Source: an uncultured Candidatus Saccharibacteria bacterium (GTDB taxonomy: Bacteria; Patescibacteriota; Minisyncoccia; Minisyncoccales; Staskawiczbacteraceae). From it: a stretch of DNA of 48,832 bases. The stretch spans positions 1-48,832 of the forward strand of contig CAZMKW010000001.1 of the NCBI GenBank assembly GCA_964567205.1. Direction: 5' to 3'. Positions 3,057-47,979 of the stretch are shown here, piece after piece. Under the pieces are notes generated by a model. The model ran no database searches. It was not told the DNA's origin and saw only the letters and a list, made by a program, of their open reading frames with translations. Each line of letters begins with the position of its first letter. Position 1 is the stretch's first letter. Position numbers and translations under genes: made by a program.

Positions 3057-4480
3057 TATTTCTTTTTTTCTCCTTTTTCTTTTATTACGCTAATATGAAG
3101 CTCCTTAAGCTGTTTTTTATCAATTTCCGAGGGGGCGTGCATCATAAAGTCTCGTCCGTCTCCGGTTTTTGGAAAAGCAATCACTTCTCTTATATTTGGT
3201 TCGCCCAACAATAAAGCAAAAATCCTATCTAAACCCCAAGCAATTCCTCCATGAGGAGGAGCGCCGTATTTAAAAGCCTCCATCATGTGTCCAAATTTTT
3301 CTTGTATGACGTCTTTTTTATATCCCATTATTTCAAAAACTTTTTCCAAAGCTTCCGGACGATGATTTCTAATCGACCCTCCACCAATTTCAAAACCATT
3401 TAAAACAACATCATATTGACTTGTTAAAATATTCTCAATATTTTTTTGTTTCATCAAATCTTCGCTGAACTCAGGCTTAGCGGCCGAAAATGGGTTATGC
3501 GTGAAGGTCCATTTCTTTTCGTCGTTCTTTTCAAAAAACGGGAAATCGACCACCCAACAAAATGCTAAAAGATTTTTATCATCAGGGGACCCTTCGGGTC
3601 GTTCCCTTATATCGGGCCTGTCTGTTTTATATTTTGCCATCGCCTCTTTATAAGATATCCTTGGAAATGGAATTTTTTGAATCTTTTTTTCGGGAAATAA
3701 GTTTTGCACTATTAAAATTAAAAGGCGTTCGGTAAGCCCCATAACGTCTTCCTGTTCAACAAAGCTCATTTCCAGATCGAGCTGAGTGAATTCCGGTTGT
3801 CTATCCCCTCTTGGATCTTCGTCTCTCAAACATTTTGCAATCTGAAAATATTTTTCAATACCGGCAACCATTAACAACTGCTTATATTGTTGCGGGGACT
3901 GCGGAAGAGCATAAAATTGGCCTGCGTTTAACCTTGATGGCACGATATAATCTCTTGCGCCTTCGGGCGTTGATTTTGTCAAAATAGGGGTTTCAATCTC
4001 GGCAAAACCCTCTTTATCCATAAAGTCGCGGATAAATTTTATAACCTTATGTCGCACAATAAAATTATTTTTCAACCTTTGCCTTCTTAAGTCTAAATAT
4101 CTATATTTCATTCTTGTCTCCTCACCAATATCATAACCGTCCCCTTCGATAGATAGTGGTATGGCCTCGGACTCGGACAAAACTTTTAAACTTTCCACCG
4201 AAAGCTCAACCTGCCCGGTCTCTATCTTTGGGTTAATCATATTTTCCGGTCTTTTTACTACTTGTCCTCTTATTTCCACAACCCATTCAGGTCTTATAGT
4301 TTGAGCCAATTCATAAGCCTCCTTATTTGAGGGCACAAAAACAACCTGCATAATTCCACTTATGTCCCGCAAATCGATAAATAAAATCTTTCCATGAACC
4401 CTTCTTGTGTCAACCCATCCGCAAACCCTAACTTCTTCTCCAATATGTTTTGCCGTATCTTTTACTAAAAATCTTTGCAT
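3056..4480 (-). CDS. aspS: Aspartyl-tRNA synthetase, bacterial-type core without the GAD insertion domain
   Basis: N-terminal OB-fold sequence plus FYALPQSPQQYKQLLM and RDEDPRGDRQPEFTQLDLEMSF class II motifs. The ORF is only 474 aa. The sequence passes from DRPDIR almost directly to WVVDFPFFE. Confidence 0.93.
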   Translation of the reverse strand: MQRFLVKDTAKHIGEEVRVCGWVDTRRVHGKILFIDLRDISGIMQVVFVPSNKEAYELAQTIRPEWVVEIRGQVVKRPENMINPKIETGQVELSVESLKVLSESEAIPLSIEGDGYDIGEETRMKYRYLDLRRQRLKNNFIVRHKVIKFIRDFMDKEGFAEIETPILTKSTPEGARDYIVPSRLNAGQFYALPQSPQQYKQLLMVAGIEKYFQIAKCLRDEDPRGDRQPEFTQLDLEMSFVEQEDVMGLTERLLILIVQNLFPEKKIQKIPFPRISYKEAMAKYKTDRPDIRERPEGSPDDKNLLAFCWVVDFPFFEKNDEKKWTFTHNPFSAAKPEFSEDLMKQKNIENILTSQYDVVLNGFEIGGGSIRNHRPEALEKVFEIMGYKKDVIQEKFGHMMEAFKYGAPPHGGIAWGLDRIFALLLGEPNIREVIAFPKTGDGRDFMMHAPSEIDKKQLKELHISVIKEKGEKKK

Positions 4481-4507: not shown

Positions 4508-5140
4508 TTATTTACTAAACCGAAAACTCGAAATTATCTTATCTAATATTTTCGGCTGGCTCTCGTTTGTTGCCACGCAGTCGTCATAATTTTTTTTCTG
4601 ATCAGTATCACCCGGCTCTAACGGCAAATAAAAATCGCAATTTACAGTGGTTACAGCAAAATACGCGACAATACATTTCTGATTTTTAACCGTGGCATAA
4701 TAGTAATAGTTGAATGCATGTCCGGTTGCCGAGTCTCCAGTTGCATACAAGCAATATTGAATATTATTTATTGTTTGCTTCTGCCCATCGACATCCCAAT
4801 ATCCCGGAGACGATATATTATTTTCTATTGCTTTTGAGCTTCCTCCTTGTTCAGATAAATTTTTTGCAACAATACTACTTATATTTGGACATTGATCGGG
4901 AAAAACATCGTAATTGCAGTCTCCCATAAGGATTTGTGGCTGTTGATTTTGGTCAAAAAATCCGTCCGGATATTTAAACTCAAAACCATAGTCGACGCTT
5001 TGGCGCGTTTCCCAGTCCGACGTTCCATCTTGCCGAACTTGGTTTTTTTGTGATAAAAATTCCTGGTACAAAAAATATCCTGCAAGAGCAGACACAATAA
5101 TAATTATAAAAATAGCGAATATAGATTTATTCTTCATCAT
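4508..5140 (-). CDS. Hypothetical membrane-anchored, Cys-containing exported protein
   Basis: 210-aa ORF with an N-terminal TM/signal anchor and no recognised domain. It fills the gap between aspS and tyrS. Confidence 0.55.
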   Translation of the reverse strand: MMKNKSIFAIFIIIIVSALAGYFLYQEFLSQKNQVRQDGTSDWETRQSVDYGFEFKYPDGFFDQNQQPQILMGDCNYDVFPDQCPNISSIVAKNLSEQGGSSKAIENNISSPGYWDVDGQKQTINNIQYCLYATGDSATGHAFNYYYYATVKNQKCIVAYFAVTTVNCDFYLPLEPGDTDQKKNYDDCVATNESQPKILDKIISSFRFSK

Positions 5141-15505: not shown

Positions 15506-15568
15506 TCACCCCGCCCTCTAAGCTCTGCGTTCGTGTTCTACATAACACCTACAGCATAGAGGGCGGGG
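15506..15568. repeat. Inverted-repeat element, copy A (13-bp perfect arms ACCCCGCCCTCTA / TAGAGGGCGGGGT, 36-nt interior)
   Basis: Read directly. The termini CACCCCGCCCTCTAAGCT and GCATAGAGGGCGGGGT are identical to those of copy B at 44208-44308. Confidence 0.9.
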
Positions 15569-15588
15569 TAAGTCTCGCTATCGCTCGC

Positions 15589-21887: not shown

Positions 21888-22673
21888 TTAAAAACCAAGC
21901 TCAATCCAGCGCCATTTTCCGTATTGGTCTTTATTAAATTTATAATTTGAGTATTTATTTTTTAAAATTATTTCTTTTACGACCGCCTTCTGATCGGGAC
22001 TGAATTCCATAAAGATTTTACCGTCCGGATTCAAATATTTTTTGGCTTCTTTCAGAAACTTTTTGATATAAAAAAGCCCATCGGCTCCTCCGAATAATGC
22101 CTGACTTGGCTCAAATTTTAAAACTGATTTTTGGATTTTGTTTTTTTGCGTAGTTGGAATATATGGTGGGTTTGCGAAAATATAATCATATTTATTTCTA
22201 ATATTTTTGAAAACGTCGGATTTTATTATTTTACTTCGCCAGGCCGAAGCCTCTGGCGAAGGCTGGTTTAATTTGTAGTTTATTTTTATCTGAGCGATTG
22301 CGTTTTTGTCGTTGTCCGCCATGTCGCATAATAAACCTGGCATATTTTTTAATAACGCAATTCCAATACATCCTGACCCACAAAAAATATCCAAAGCCCT
22401 TATTTTTCTCCTGTCGTGAAAAGTGCGCGATAGCGCACTTTTCACGACAGGTCTTACAATGGACTTTATCGCCTGGTCTACCCAAAATTCTGTTTCCGGC
22501 CGCGGTATCAGCGGTCTTTTTGATAAATCAATTTTACACGACAAAAACTCAGTAAATCCGATTACATAATCTAACGGCTCAGCACCGTTGAGCCGTTTAA
22601 TATCTTTATAAAATTGTTTTGTCGGCCTGCCAAAGTATTTTTCCTTTAACAGCCACCCTAATTCTTTTTCCAT
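21888..22673 (-). CDS. prmC: Release factor glutamine N5-methyltransferase (PrmC/HemK)
   Basis: Contains DIFCGSGCIG (SAM motif) and NPPY (FANPPYIP). The start is at the internal ATG overlapping the upstream stop (TAATG). It carries a 14-codon palindromic insert. Confidence 0.88.
   Translation of the reverse strand: MEKELGWLLKEKYFGRPTKQFYKDIKRLNGAEPLDYVIGFTEFLSCKIDLSKRPLIPRPETEFWVDQAIKSIVRPVVKSALSRTFHDRRKIRALDIFCGSGCIGIALLKNMPGLLCDMADNDKNAIAQIKINYKLNQPSPEASAWRSKIIKSDVFKNIRNKYDYIFANPPYIPTTQKNKIQKSVLKFEPSQALFGGADGLFYIKKFLKEAKKYLNPDGKIFMEFSPDQKAVVKEIILKNKYSNYKFNKDQYGKWRWIELGF
22410..22451. repeat. Perfect 42-bp palindrome (19-bp arms, 4-nt centre) inside the prmC coding frame
   Basis: CCTGTCGTGAAAAGTGCGC-GATA-GCGCACTTTTCACGACAGG read directly. 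It spans exactly codons 75-88 (PVVKSALSRTFHDR). Confidence 0.95.
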
Positions 22674-44207: not shown

Positions 44208-44308
44208 CACCCCGCCCTCTAAGCTGTTGGTTTTTGTTTGAGGGTTTTCTGGGTGCTTCAGTAATTGTTTTTAAATTATAAATAATGAATGGGCATAGAG
44301 GGCGGGGT
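44208..44308. repeat. Inverted-repeat element, copy B (same 13-bp arms as copy A, 74-nt interior) in the mraZ leader
   Basis: CACCCCGCCCTCTAAGCT is at 44208-44225 and GCATAGAGGGCGGGGT at 44293-44308. Confidence 0.9.
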
Positions 44309-44548: not shown

Positions 44549-44580
44549 AAAAAAGCCTCGCGTAAACTAATACGCGAGGC
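44549..44580 (-). terminator. Intrinsic terminator of the two-gene zinc-ribbon cassette
   Basis: Minus strand reads GCCTCGCG-TATTAGTTTA-CGCGAGGC followed by T6. Confidence 0.8.
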
Positions 44581-44608: not shown

Positions 44609-44806
44609 CTATGTTGTAGAATTAGAAGACGTAGAGATTACTCTTTCTTTGGGCCAAAGTTCGCTCTGGGCCATGTCTGCGATTTTTTTGACGACATGCC
44701 CATGGCAACAGTGTTCTGTGTCTCTCAGCTCGGTTACATCGTAATACCCACGACACACCTCGCAGTAGTATGTCCCCACATGATTTTGTGCTTTGTTGTC
44801 GGCCAT
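44609..44806 (-). CDS. Small Cys/His-rich (zinc-ribbon-like) protein
   Basis: 65 aa with CEVC and HCCHGH. A GGAGAG RBS lies inside the end of the upstream ORF. GC-richer than the backbone. Confidence 0.6.
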   Translation of the reverse strand: MADNKAQNHVGTYYCEVCRGYYDVTELRDTEHCCHGHVVKKIADMAQSELWPKERVISTSSNSTT

Positions 44807-44807
44807 C

Positions 44808-45041
44808 TCACTCTCCTTCCTTAAAAATCACGGCGCCATTCACGAAACGCGCGCTCATTTTGGTGCCGTGTTCCGTATATAATTGTCCGCAAGTCTCGCA
44901 GGCGTATCCGATACAATCGCCTACGGGAATTTCTCTGACAAAATCAATCTCGCCCAAGCAACTCTGCTTTACGCACTTTGTGTTTTGTAAAATAATCTTG
45001 TTCATTTCTTGTCCCTTTCCTTGTAGTTGTGAATGAGCCAC
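44808..45041 (-). CDS. Small zinc-ribbon-like protein (start uncertain: GTG at 45041 or ATG at 45005)
   Basis: CVKQSC and CETCG pairs. The GTG start has a GGAGGA RBS that is sequestered in the upstream hairpin. The ATG start has GGAAAGGGA upstream. Confidence 0.55.
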   Translation of the reverse strand: MAHSQLQGKGQEMNKIILQNTKCVKQSCLGEIDFVREIPVGDCIGYACETCGQLYTEHGTKMSARFVNGAVIFKEGE

Positions 45042-45042
45042 G

Positions 45043-45070
45043 AAAAAAATCCTCCGTCAGGAGGATTTTT
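45043..45070 (-). terminator. Terminator-like hairpin that also contains the Shine-Dalgarno of the downstream ORF
   Basis: Minus strand reads AAAAATCCTCC-TGAC-GGAGGATTTTT followed by TT, then C and the GTG start codon. Confidence 0.55.
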
Positions 45071-45168
45071 GATATAACTTTTTTGTTTTATTTATTTATA
45101 TACTATTATCAAAAACCTCCTGGATTTCGCCAATAAAAGCAAGCTTAACAATGCGAGGTTTTTATTCA

Positions 45169-45398
45169 CCCCGTTAGAGGTTTGTTTCATGTTTTGTACT
45201 GAATCCCGTCAAGGTCGTTAGCATCTCTAACGGGGTTCATATTTTTATAATACTCTTGTATGGGAGCTTGTCAACCCCGTTAGAAACGCCACCCGCGCCT
45301 ACCCCGCTTAGAGGTATGATTTTTTAAACCCTTCCGGATTTTGCTTATCTGCGTACCCAAAGGGCCCAGGGCGGGCCGTTTCTGACGGGGTCAACCCC
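45169..45398. repeat. Cluster of five alternately oriented GC-rich motifs (CCCCGYTAGAG / CCCCGTYAGAAACG)
   Basis: Copies lie at 45169-45180 (+), 45225-45235 (inverted), 45275-45288 (+), 45302-45314 (+, one extra C) and 45377-45390 (inverted). The last copy abuts the stop codon of the Clp-like gene. Confidence 0.85.
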
Positions 45399-47979
45399 TC
45401 ACTAATACTTCAAAAGTTTCCGGATCAATTTCAATTTTATCGCCCTTACCTATTTTGTCAGACAAAAGCGCCTGGGCAATTGAATTTTCTACTTTATCCT
45501 GCACAACCCTACGCATTTCCCTGGCACCGTACTCGGGCTTATAAGAAAGTTCGACAATCTTTTCTTTTAGAGGTTCTGTAATTTCAAAATCAATTTCTTT
45601 TTCTTTTAGGTTTTTTTGAAGGCCTTGCAAAGTAAGCTGGGATATTTTTAACAAATTATCTTTTGTTAAGGGGTGAAAAAGTACGGTTGCATCAAAACGG
45701 TTTATAAATTCCGGCCTAAAAATATTTTTATCGAAAAGGGCGTTCAACAATTTATCTTTATCTGTCGTTTGCTTAGATTCAATTTGTTTAAAGATTATGT
45801 CAGCCCCCGCGTTTGAGGTGCAAATAATTATTGTATTTGTAAAAACAACTTTTCTTCCCTGCCCATCTGTTATGTGCCCTTCATCTAAAACCTGTAAAAA
45901 CAAATTTAGGATATTTGGATGGGACTTTTCAATCTCATCCAACAAAAGCAAAGAAAACGGGGTTTCCCTAATCGGAGTTGTTAAAAGTCCCTGCATCTCC
46001 ACCGGAGAAGTTGCACCAATCAGCCTTGGTATATCTGAAATAGCTTGAAACTCAGACATATCAAGCCTTATCATTTTTTTCTCAGATCCAAAATATATCT
46101 GTGCCAATGCCTTAGCGGTTTCTGTTTTACCAACACCCGTAGGGCCTAAAAATAAAAACGTTCCCATGGGCCTTGTTTTAGAAGCGATCCCCATTCTTGC
46201 GCGCCTCATAGCAATTGATATTTCGCTTACGGCCTCCTCCTGATTTATAATTCTTTGGTGTATTAAATTTTCTAAGTTTAACAGTGTTTCTTTTTCTTTG
46301 GATGCCATTTTTCCAATTGGTATTTCTGTTTTGCTGGAAACAACTTCAGCGACGTGATGAGGAAACACAACTTTTTCCTTATGAGACTGCACATAAACCA
46401 CAACTTCTTCTAAAATGTCCAAGGCTTTTTTAGGAAACGGCAAGCTTGGCATATATCTTGCCGTTAAGTTAACTATTTCTCTGATGCTCGGATATAATAT
46501 AAAAATTTTATGCCTATATTCTGATTCTAGAGCAGCAGATTGGAGAATTCTTATTGTTTCAGCTTCGGTTACCTCGGAAACCTCAACTTTTCTGAAAAAA
46601 TTAGCGAACGAGGGATTTTGTTCTATATTTTTATGAAGGCCGTCGTAAGTGGTAATCCCGACAAACTGAAAATTTGGTATAGCCAAATATCTGGACAATA
46701 TACCCGATATATCAACGGCTCCGGCTTTTTGGACCGCTTGGCCTACAAAGTTTTCTAAATTATCAATTGCTAAAATGACGTTTCCGGCCGCCATAGCTTC
46801 CGAAAATATCTGGTCTAAAATTAGTTCTAATTTTTCAAAATCCTGCACCGTTGCAGACAACTGAACCACATCTAATTCCACAACCCTTTTATTGTTTAAT
46901 TCTGGTAGTGACTCGCCCAAATAGCACCTTTGTGCCAGCGCCTGGATTATGCTTTTTCTGCCGGTCCCCGAGTCTCCAACTATTAAAGCATTCGATAAGC
47001 TGGATTTTGCCAAAATCATCTCTGCCTGTTCTATCTCTTTTGTGTGGCCTATAATCTCTCTGACCCTCCACCCGGAAACAACCCTTCTCCAATCAATAGA
47101 GAATTGGTCTAAAGTTATTGTGTATCCCGATGCCCAGTCCTTTCCCATAGAGCCCTGCCTGGCTAAATTTTCTTTTGACCAGAATTTTTTATTTCTTTCC
47201 CAGGACTCCTCGGCAGAATCTAACCATAAGGTGATATTCTCCACATCTTCAAACTTAAGATCATACTCAACCAAAACTTTTTTAAAAAATGTGTCGTGTT
47301 TTGCCAAAGCAACCAGAATCTCTTTTTCTCCGATTTTATTATAGCCTCTGGCATTGGAAATATTTGCAGCTTCTATAATTGTCTGTTGAAAATCTTCAGA
47401 AAAAAATTCTGGCAATCGGCTTGTTTGGTCTTGCGCCGGCTGTCTCTGTGTTTTTTCCAAATAATTTTTTAAATCTATTTCAAATTTTTTAGGATCTAAC
47501 CCCAACCTAAAACAAACCGTTAACACTTCTTTGCTGGCCCTTAACGCGCAGTAGAGTAATGAAGTGGAGTTTACAGATATTTTTTTCTTTTTACAAAACT
47601 TTAAAGAACTCTGTACCATAGTAGCCACGGGCAAACTTAAAAACTCAGCTAAATTATAACGTTCCAAGTCCAAAACAGCATCTGAAAGTTTAACTGATAA
47701 TCCGGGCTTTTTTATTTTTAATTTTAAAAACAGAGAGATGTCCCAAAAAGATAAAAACAGTATTAAAAACAGAATCGGCGCCTTGATAGCCACGCTTCCT
47801 GCGACCTGGCCAAAAAAATAAAGTACTATAAAAAATAGTGACAAAATAAATAGAACCAAAAACAGCTGACACAAAAAACCTGCGAATCTAAAAATAAAAA
47901 ACCTTTCCCGTTTTACTGCCCGCAGAACCGCTGTTTTATTTAGACTAAAGACAAAAGGCATTGGCTTGTTTTTTAACAA
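45391..47979 (-). CDS. Membrane-tethered two-ring Clp/Hsp100-family AAA+ ATPase with degenerate first nucleotide-binding domain
   Basis: N-terminal hydrophobic helices followed by Clp_N-like repeats. NBD1 has Walker A GDSGTGRKS and Walker B ILAIDNLE. NBD2 is canonical, with GPTGVGKTE and LLLLDEIEKSH. No ClpB-type middle domain is visible. Confidence 0.85.
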   Translation of the reverse strand: MLKNKPMPFVFSLNKTAVLRAVKRERFFIFRFAGFLCQLFLVLFILSLFFIVLYFFGQVAGSVAIKAPILFLILFLSFWDISLFLKLKIKKPGLSVKLSDAVLDLERYNLAEFLSLPVATMVQSSLKFCKKKKISVNSTSLLYCALRASKEVLTVCFRLGLDPKKFEIDLKNYLEKTQRQPAQDQTSRLPEFFSEDFQQTIIEAANISNARGYNKIGEKEILVALAKHDTFFKKVLVEYDLKFEDVENITLWLDSAEESWERNKKFWSKENLARQGSMGKDWASGYTITLDQFSIDWRRVVSGWRVREIIGHTKEIEQAEMILAKSSLSNALIVGDSGTGRKSIIQALAQRCYLGESLPELNNKRVVELDVVQLSATVQDFEKLELILDQIFSEAMAAGNVILAIDNLENFVGQAVQKAGAVDISGILSRYLAIPNFQFVGITTYDGLHKNIEQNPSFANFFRKVEVSEVTEAETIRILQSAALESEYRHKIFILYPSIREIVNLTARYMPSLPFPKKALDILEEVVVYVQSHKEKVVFPHHVAEVVSSKTEIPIGKMASKEKETLLNLENLIHQRIINQEEAVSEISIAMRRARMGIASKTRPMGTFLFLGPTGVGKTETAKALAQIYFGSEKKMIRLDMSEFQAISDIPRLIGATSPVEMQGLLTTPIRETPFSLLLLDEIEKSHPNILNLFLQVLDEGHITDGQGRKVVFTNTIIICTSNAGADIIFKQIESKQTTDKDKLLNALFDKNIFRPEFINRFDATVLFHPLTKDNLLKISQLTLQGLQKNLKEKEIDFEITEPLKEKIVELSYKPEYGAREMRRVVQDKVENSIAQALLSDKIGKGDKIEIDPETFEVLVRG

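Follow-up and report, generated by a model that had tools for sequence, protein, structure and literature searches.

The stretch of DNA analysed here (the window; 48,832 nucleotides (nt)) belongs to an uncultured Candidatus Saccharibacteria bacterium with a 559-kb genome of 38% G+C. The assembly is 86% complete and is labelled G000 in our comparison of 26 genomes of the genus. Behind a Clp/AAA+ ATPase gene (clp) on the minus strand lies an intergenic region (45043-45398) with five GC-rich motifs and two A/T-flanked hairpins, which a preliminary description had taken for either a BIME/REP-like repeat cluster or a structured regulatory RNA. The region is composed of two unrelated parts: two insertions of mobile elements, and a leader-peptide attenuator. 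It very probably represents two non-autonomous members of one element family, here called elements A and B, that inserted into a leucine leader-peptide attenuator module. The features of the insertions, followed along the minus strand from clp, are these:

45391-47979, minus strand: clp, the Clp/AAA+ ATPase gene, 862 amino acids (aa) in the list of open reading frames (ORFs), with its stop codon TGA at 45393-45391
45391-45394: clp-side copy of the element B target duplication (TCAA on the plus strand, TTGA on the minus strand), which supplies the clp stop codon
45275-45390: element B, a 116-bp non-coding inverted-repeat element (a miniature inverted-repeat transposable element, MITE), detected as inverted repeat I4 and flanked by identical TCAA
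45380-45390, inverted: motif copy CCCCGTCAGAA, right end of element B
45302-45313, plus strand: motif copy CCCCGCTTAGAG, with one additional base, a degenerate third end-copy inside element B found by motif search
45275, plus strand: motif copy CCCCGTTAGAA, left end of element B
45271-45274: second copy of the element B target duplication, which provides the first four bases (TTGA) of the -35 box TTGACA
45247-45274, minus strand: predicted sigma-70-type promoter upstream of the leader, TTGACA-16 nt-TATTAT, with 11 of 12 consensus positions
45236-45239: target duplication of element A (TTCA on the plus strand, TGAA on the minus strand), the copy still joined to the old ATG (ATGAA)
45187-45240, minus strand: new 17-codon ORF, read from the sequence and putatively translated, from the old leader ATG 45240 into element A
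45169-45235: element A, a 67-bp non-coding inverted-repeat element with ends CCCCGTTAGAG and CTCTAACGGGG, 11 bp perfect
45225-45235, inverted: inverted copy of motif CCCCGTTAGAG, right end of element A
45169, plus strand: motif copy CCCCGTTAGAG, left end of element A
45165-45168: second copy of the element A target duplication, flank TTCA
45092-45190, minus strand: present leader ORF in the ORF list, MKQTSNGV-NKNLALLSLLLLAKSRRFLIIVYK, with 8 leucines

A pattern search of the window thus found all five motif copies that had been reported. The pattern CCCCGYTWAGAR matches only the degenerate copy at 45302. The right boundary of element A is 45235, giving 67 bp, which is a small correction to the earlier account. 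An inverted-repeat search recovered every pairing described before, as I2 (17 nt, 88% complementary, with a perfect core of 11 bp), I4 (15 nt, 93% complementary, arms 88 nt apart), I10 (hairpin arms 45111-45119 and 45155-45163) and I7 (hairpin arms 45045-45055 and 45060-45070, 11 bp perfect). One motif copy had been said both to pair downstream and to overlap the clp stop. The pairing exists, but the overlap does not: the TGA at 45393-45391 lies within the target duplication of element B, outside the motif.

The motif is not confined to this region. A genome-wide count, proposed earlier as a way of telling a dispersed repeat from a unique RNA, gives 21 occurrences of the exact 10-mer CCCCGTTAGA in the 559-kb genome. 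About 0.5 would be expected from base composition, and the reversed-pattern control gives 0, so the motif recurs beyond chance and is a dispersed repeat.

The ends of element B, CCCCGTTAGAAACG and CGTTTCTGACGGGG, agree at 14 of 15 positions and enclose a GC-rich interior. Its insertion split the TTGA in which the end of clp (GGT TGA) overlaps with the promoter's -35 box, TTGACA. Because 4 bp were duplicated, the first TTGA copy still terminates clp and the second still begins TTGACA. In relatives, the identical layout TTGACA-N16/17-TAnnAT is found directly 3' of the clp stop. Element B has a homologue at G021:C57:10235-10335. The related element on that contig (L107) holds a complete 29-bp mini-element nested at the position matching 45302, and the end-copy at 45302 is probably the remnant of a nested mini-hairpin.

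Element A, which folds as single-stranded DNA with z = -4.1, inserted at the TGAA within the ATGAA that opened the leader, 6 nt past the -10 box. The ancestral leader began at ATG 45240 as MNKNLALL.... At present, the final G of element A and the following TG make up GTG at 45169-45167, and this codon keeps the frame of the old leader (NKNLALL...). The TGA of the 17-codon ORF overlaps the next ATG (ATGA, 45190-45187), and this ATG at 45190 reads through the right end of element A into the old leader frame. The GTG would rebuild the leader start, while the ATGA-coupled ORF would link the old ATG to the old frame. An orthologous leader ORF in G021 (C8, L030) carries a different in-frame inverted-repeat insert, ACCCAGTTAAATA...TATTTAACAGGGT, by which the leader has been extended to 51 aa; the leader start region seems to be a recurrent landing place for insertions. 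Further copies in the source genome (C13:14992, C44:328, C15:5720, C12:16250) sit on ATGAA or TATG starts or on a stop-adjacent TTGA, which agrees with a landing preference for such signals.

The ancestral state can be read from relatives. Orthologues of clp are present in 26 of 26 genus genomes, with 73-93% identity over the last 249 aa, and the region 3' of the orthologue was taken from the other 25. The motifs are absent from all 25 of these regions, 12 of which retain the attenuator module. Deletion of A and B in silico, each with one copy of its duplication, yields a sequence colinear with that of the relatives. The empty sites and this colinearity show that the insertions are specific to the source lineage. 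On the ancestral minus strand, the clp stop would have overlapped the -35 box (GGT TGA CA) of the leader promoter. This promoter would have transcribed a near-leaderless, leucine-rich peptide, MNKNLALLSLLLL..., set in a four-segment attenuator.

Nearly all motif occurrences in the source genome form convergent pairs enclosing 39-130 bp, and about 12 elements bounded by CCCCGTTAGA-type ends lie at unrelated loci. Across the genus, 22 of 26 genomes contain the 10-mer, with counts of 0-50 per genome (controls 0-4). Among the matches listed, the shortest enclosed length is 27 bp, the longest 408 bp and the mode 127-130 bp, and the interiors are highly diverse. The 4-bp flanks are identical in 48 of the 70 genus elements whose flanks are readable; the commonest are TAAA (15), TGAA (9), TTCA (7), TTTA (5), TCAA (4) and TTGA (4). 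Since almost all flanks are TAAA/TTTA, TGAA/TTCA or TCAA/TTGA, the target is TVAA. A scan across phyla, using one genome per species, found the same end pair in at least 117 contigs from Patescibacteria, Omnitrophota, Planctomycetota, Desulfobacterota and others. A 4-bp duplication accompanies 46 of 83 elements in these other phyla, with the same target preference, and the perfect duplication is found in about 60% of elements overall. The non-coding units with terminal inverted repeats, the fixed 4-bp duplication, the many loci and the empty sites in relatives are features of a MITE family. A small member in G020 (L059, C48:1960-1988) is a 29-bp mini-element lying within a comF-like phosphoribosyltransferase gene. 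Together with its 4-bp duplication it adds 33 bp, or 11 codons, stays in frame and encodes NPVRNGISNGV.

The other part of the region is the module into which A and B inserted. As far as the sequence can tell, the two A/T-flanked hairpins belong to a classical leader-peptide attenuator of the leucine type. Its four segments are:

45155-45163, minus strand: segment 1, AAAAACCUC (I10); its helix with segment 2 is found in 13 of 13 genomes
45106-45123, minus strand: segment 2, CCAGGAGGUUUUUGAUAA (I8, I9, I10), which pairs with segment 1 or segment 3
45058-45074, minus strand: segment 3, UAUCAAAAAUCCUCCUG (I7-I9), predicted antiterminator with segment 2 and terminator with segment 4
45043-45055, minus strand: segment 4 with the U-run, GGAGGAUUUUUUU; with segment 3 it forms the predicted intrinsic terminator 45070-45043

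The module is present in 13 genus genomes, where the clp stop is followed by TTGACA-N16/17-TAnnAT, a leader ORF and the four segments. The leader ORFs are 21-51 aa long, and in 12 of the 13 they contain 7-10 leucine codons and stop in or just past segment 2. The source leader has 8 leucines in 25-32 codons, with the predicted promoter adjoining at 45274-45247. A MAFFT alignment of the attenuators was poorly registered around segments 1 and 3 and was replaced by per-sequence folds and a test of cognate against non-cognate duplexes. In these folds, the 1:2, 2:3 and 3:4 helices (the last being the terminator with its U-run) are present in every one of the 13 genomes. Their energies range from -9 to -20 kcal/mol for 1:2 and from -9 to -21 kcal/mol for 3:4; the 2:3 helix has -18.2 kcal/mol in the source genome and -12.8 to -22.4 in relatives. 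The terminator loop co-varies with the bases 5' of segment 2 (CCAG/CUGG, GGCUGG/CCAGCC, GCCAAG/CUUGGC), and in L048 both strands of the 1:2 helix are changed. Cognate segments outpair non-cognate ones, the observed mean being reached in 22 of 5000 permutations for 2:3, 113 of 5000 for 1:2 and 397 of 5000 for 3:4, counts that are supportive but not proof, since related genomes are not independent. The conserved sequence GGAGGUUUUUGAUAA is translated in three different frames among the genomes, and it is therefore conserved as RNA and not as peptide.

When leucyl-tRNA is scarce, a ribosome would stall on the leucine codons between segments 1 and 2 and mask segment 1. Segment 2 would then pair with segment 3, the 3:4 terminator would be prevented and the genes behind would be transcribed. 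With plentiful leucine, the ribosome would advance onto segment 2 and the terminator would form. Promoter and attenuator are presumably active in the source genome, and the switch may still function after the insertions. The structured RNA with alternative folds that had been proposed thus stands for the two A/T-flanked hairpins, with their 1:2, 2:3 and 3:4 helices, and falls for the GC-rich motifs. The last hairpin had also been thought to sequester the Shine-Dalgarno sequence of the zinc-ribbon ORF that follows, a role that is not supported, the GGAGGA arm being kept in 13 genomes regardless of the following gene.

Three features lie behind the attenuator in the source genome:

44808-45005, minus strand: first zinc-ribbon ORF, from the ORF list, 65 aa from ATG 45005 (77 aa from GTG 45041)
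44609-44806, minus strand: second zinc-ribbon ORF, 65 aa, with weak zinc-finger matches only
44555-44580, minus strand: predicted intrinsic terminator closing the small-ORF unit

The first zinc-ribbon ORF gave no match in Pfam and NCBIfam searches. Its ATG 45005 is preceded by its own AAGGAAAGGGA and is a likelier start than GTG 45041. In relatives, the downstream genes begin 38-166 nt later and have their own ribosome-binding sites. In L026 the module is followed by leuA (HMGL-like, E 1.3e-70, plus IPMS_D2) and in L039 by a truncated leuA; unrelated small genes follow in the remaining genomes. A further conserved sequence, GCAC(A/C)TT(T/C)ACAA, is found 3' of the attenuator terminator in the window (45026-45038, minus strand) and in L026, L034, L037, L039, L048 and L049, and is kept in many genomes regardless of the next gene.

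Elements A and B are non-coding, but some relatives carry members with a gene. Four elements of 274-408 bp (L112, L065, L062, L092) each contain a GIY-YIG ORF (PF01541, E 5.6e-14) as their sole ORF. It is 85 aa long, starts 8 nt past the left end and has its TAA within the right end. These coding members measure 274-281 bp in G015 and G023 and 408 bp, including a nested copy, in G009. A full-length example is that of G023:C3:218808-219062. The 4-bp target duplication is perfect in three of the four, and the flanks of L062 agree at three of four bases. GIY-YIG elements bounded by the same ends occur in G023, G015, G011 and G009. The closest solved structures to the 85-aa protein are the UPF0213 proteins 1ZG2 and 1YWL. 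Small GIY-YIG genes number 1-9 per genus genome. The copies closest to the coding members bear CCCCGTTAGA-type ends and distant ones bear CCCCGTTAAAAATC, CCCCGTGAGATA, ACCCGCCAAAATTTTTAG, CCCCGCACCTATTAAGCAC and others, so the protein and the ends co-vary. Five genomes have a GIY-YIG copy at least 66% identical to a coding member, four with CCCCGTTAGA-type ends and one with the variant CCCCGTTAAAAATC. All five are among the nine motif-richest genomes, with a hypergeometric p of ~0.002 for genomes that are related and not independent.

Judged from these sequences, the elements would most likely be mobilised in trans by the 85-aa single-domain GIY-YIG nuclease, whose gene, set between the same ends, would constitute the 281-bp full-length members of sister species. 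The chances are about even, in our estimate, that the CCCCGTTAGA elements represent non-autonomous copies of a prokaryotic transposon belonging to a new class, the autonomous unit of which is ~280 bp long and consists of a GIY-YIG gene between 14-bp inverted repeats. A tblastn search for GIY-YIG in the source genome found just two distant copies, both without CCCCGTTAGA ends. Its elements are therefore orphans in the 86%-complete assembly. A distant small GIY-YIG gene at G000:C33:4438-4677 is flanked by tRNA-Met genes (4257-4328 and 4683-4755) and has no recognisable inverted-repeat ends.

We weighed other explanations for the motifs. All five could be parts of one structured cis-regulatory or non-coding RNA whose exclusive motif pairings control the small-ORF cassette. 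Several motif pairings are indeed possible (I2-I6), and the whole transcript folds far better than shuffles (minus strand, 45242-45040; -54.7 kcal/mol, z = -5.2). Yet relatives with the same clp-leader-terminator layout possess the switch and carry none of the motifs, and these empty sites largely refute control by mutually exclusive pairing among the motif copies. The motifs also occur genome-wide and across phyla with 4-bp duplications and unrelated interiors. Rfam at its gathering threshold matches nothing in the region, its sole match in the window being a tRNA elsewhere. A permissive scan of the region gave Phe_leader as the best match, at 26 bits against a threshold of 55, and the sub-threshold Phe_leader and STnc230 matches rest only on the terminator hairpin 45070-45043. 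A single motif-based RNA is thus extremely improbable. Two further candidates were rejected: a signal recognition particle RNA in element B, considered for its GGAA loop, has the AGCA element on the wrong side and no Rfam match, and integron attC sites have their core sequences in the reversed order. Invertible promoter switches (invertons) for a site-specific recombinase would account for one conserved repeat at many loci, for segments of ~100-130 bp and for the TTGAC-like boxes close to one end in many copies. We give this practically no credence, as 4-bp target duplications and empty sites are foreign to invertons, members of 27-30 bp are too short for a promoter, and some members lie in frame within genes (L059).

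Other explanations accept mobility but name a different mover or a different host module. REP/BIME-type palindromes spread by a RAYT (Y1, IS200-like) transposase would fit the 27-30 bp hairpin repeats that coexist with longer forms, and RAYT-like genes do occur, at G000:C36:3285-3521 and several times in G009. Y1 transposition, however, yields no target duplication, against the perfect 4-bp one in so many elements. The G000:C36 gene is bordered by its own, differing hairpin GCGGAAGCCCGTCTTCCGC, and no Y1_Tnp match was found in G015, which has 25 motif hits and two coding elements. This explanation is very improbable; of the earlier repeat-cluster proposal, the dispersed repeat holds and the REP/BIME identity is contradicted by the terminal inverted repeats, the 4-bp duplications and the empty sites. 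The RAYT-like (Y1_Tnp) gene, the sole one in the genome, with GCGGAAGCCCGTCTTCCGC on both sides (G000:C36:2985-3779), forms a REP/RAYT-type system of its own. A stronger alternative, though still an unlikely one, is that the elements are ordinary MITEs mobilised by a DDE transposase sharing their ends (for example IS5-, IS3- or IS1380-like), with GIY-YIG as cargo. Inverted repeats with a 4-bp duplication are typical of DDE elements, and tRNA genes are also carried between the same ends, so cargo capture occurs. Against this, a search for a long autonomous element found no convergent motif pair above 408 bp among the matches listed, and the end sequences and the GIY-YIG protein vary together. 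DDE_Tnp_1 was rejected as the mover, being present only in G009 with unrelated ends; the rve domain was not found in G000 or G012, an IS1380-type domain was found in none of five genomes tested, and the occurrence of rve, Y1_Tnp and IS1380-type domains does not track the elements. As to the module, it might be a small self-contained gene that has its own promoter and terminator and encodes a hydrophobic, type I toxin-like peptide, or a plain clp terminator. The peptide is short and leucine-rich, the genes behind the module are unrelated among genomes, and the 5' part of the ORF region pairs with its 3' part, a feature also of some toxin mRNAs. We consider this rather improbable: with GGAGGUUUUUGAUAA read in three frames the peptide C-terminus is not conserved, the 2:3 antiterminator is found in all genomes, the terminator loop co-varies with the bases preceding segment 2, and leuA lies behind the module in two genomes.

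Several observations weigh against two GIY-YIG-mobilised insertions in a leucine attenuator. The source attenuator precedes two orphan zinc-ribbon ORFs and not a leucine gene, and no leuA or HMGL-like gene was found in the source assembly. The source leader stops 14 nt beyond segment 2, in a frame over segment 2 unlike that of relatives. With the insertion, the 5' end of the transcript has acquired the stable hairpin of element A, which may obstruct initiation at the old ATG. The perfect duplication is absent from 22 of the 70 genus elements. No CCCCGTTAGA-bounded GIY-YIG gene was found in the source assembly (86% complete), nor in G012, which has 46 motif hits. GIY-YIG nucleases are not known to catalyse transposition with a 4-bp duplication.

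Among known miniature elements, the Correia/NEMIS elements of Neisseria have a TA duplication and are not known to be tied to a GIY-YIG gene. Like them, the elements described here are non-coding and intergenic, measure ~100-150 bp, and are marked by target duplications and terminal inverted repeats; once transcribed they form hairpins, and they can bring in a promoter box or leave one intact. Unlike them, they have a 4-bp TVAA duplication and a coding partner of 281 bp that encodes a nuclease instead of a DDE transposase. REP/BIME sequences are likewise short, GC-rich repeats that form hairpins and often lie in clusters between genes, but they lack a target duplication and have a Y1 (RAYT) gene flanked by REPs, neither of which is the case here.

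The closest published system to the CCCCGTTAGA elements is Ssn/NTS, in which small GIY-YIG single-stranded-DNA nucleases have genes flanked by their own hairpin repeats (NTS/SRM) (PMC11893778, Chenal et al. 2025, Nat Commun). The authors of that study themselves remark on an architecture like that of insertion sequences. Both systems have a tiny single-domain GIY-YIG gene flanked by its own hairpin repeat, and many dispersed copies without the gene. In Ssn/NTS the gene lies between two complete hairpins, whereas here it lies between the two arms of one split hairpin. The elements here further differ in their 4-bp target duplications and empty sites, which document insertion, and in their interiors of 8 to ~110 bp and tRNA cargo. 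Ssn/NTS hosts are mainly Pseudomonadati, and those here are members of the candidate phyla radiation, Omnitrophota and Planctomycetota. Ssn belongs to CDD family cd10448 and cuts single-stranded DNA site-specifically at the repeat; the protein here has a GIY-YIG domain (PF01541). Literature searches on GIY-YIG proteins with inverted repeats, target duplication or MITEs yielded no description of such elements or miniature copies beyond Ssn/NTS, and a 2006 GIY-YIG survey does not mention such elements.

The attenuator resembles leuL/trpL of E. coli and Salmonella (Rfam Leu_leader) in its promoter-adjacent short ORF with a leucine run and a stop near segment 2, in its three mutually exclusive helices with 3:4 as the intrinsic terminator, and in the leuA downstream in two relatives. 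Sequence and covariance-model comparisons show no similarity with the leaders of enterobacteria, and unlike theirs, its mRNA is nearly leaderless. It also differs from leuL in that small orphan genes and not leucine-pathway genes follow it in most genus genomes, the source included.

Some copies of the family are found around tRNA genes. At G000:C9:11316-11558 (L001 ~3317-3559), an intact tRNA-Ile(GAT) lies between CCCCGTTAGA ends within the D-loop of a broken tRNA-Ile-like gene. The nested layout recurs in G017 with tRNA-Thr(CGT) and tRNA-Val(CAC) (C25, L102; C35, L104), and in G021 (C46, L147) a tRNA-Ile is nested between different ends. The tRNA-nested copies are without target duplication, and one of their flanks reads CTTG/CAAG. 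In most relatives the tRNA-Ile gene is plain, and tRNA-bearing copies are also present in other phyla. The T-arm of the broken outer tRNA in the source genome holds a 64-nt insert, TCCCGCGAAGCGGGACTCCC...GCCTTCGGGCAAC (G000:C9:11472-11535). The outer tRNAs of G017:C35 and G021:C46 carry this insert too. Scattered copies occur in G017, where a query that covers the insert has 8 matches, as well as in G021, G023 and others, and the insert seems to represent a second family of small repeats, with tRNA genes as landing sites. The window contains further repeat families. A sister inverted-repeat family with ends ACCCCGCCCTCTAAGC / GCATAGAGGGCGGGGT is present at 44210-44306 and 15508-15569, and one copy adjoins the mraZ start. 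This is the IR-element whose terminus CCCTCTAAGC had been likened to the motif; CCCTCTAAGC is part of this separate family. A 42-bp palindrome family, CCTGTCGTGAAAAGTGCGCG..., is present at 22410-22451 of the window, at G000:C2:25300 and at G000:C22:3281.

For annotation, a puzzling candidate structured RNA becomes two annotated insertions and a conserved leucine attenuator. The module adds evidence for ribosome-mediated attenuation in ultra-small bacteria, even before genes unrelated to amino-acid synthesis. The insertions show that mobile DNA can occupy a regulatory module of a streamlined genome while sparing stop codon, promoter and start codon. If the GIY-YIG reading is true, insertion at TVAA, often in ATGAA starts, stops and -35 boxes, would rebuild the signal that it strikes, which would explain the persistence of these elements in 0.6-Mb genomes. 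The ~280-bp GIY-YIG unit would then be the smallest protein-coding transposon known. The 10-bp ends, the 4-bp preference held across phyla and the co-variation with a miniature GIY-YIG gene make the idea of a nuclease-only micro-transposon testable, and such a micro-transposon, if real, would give the widespread UPF0213/Ssn-like proteins a biological role.

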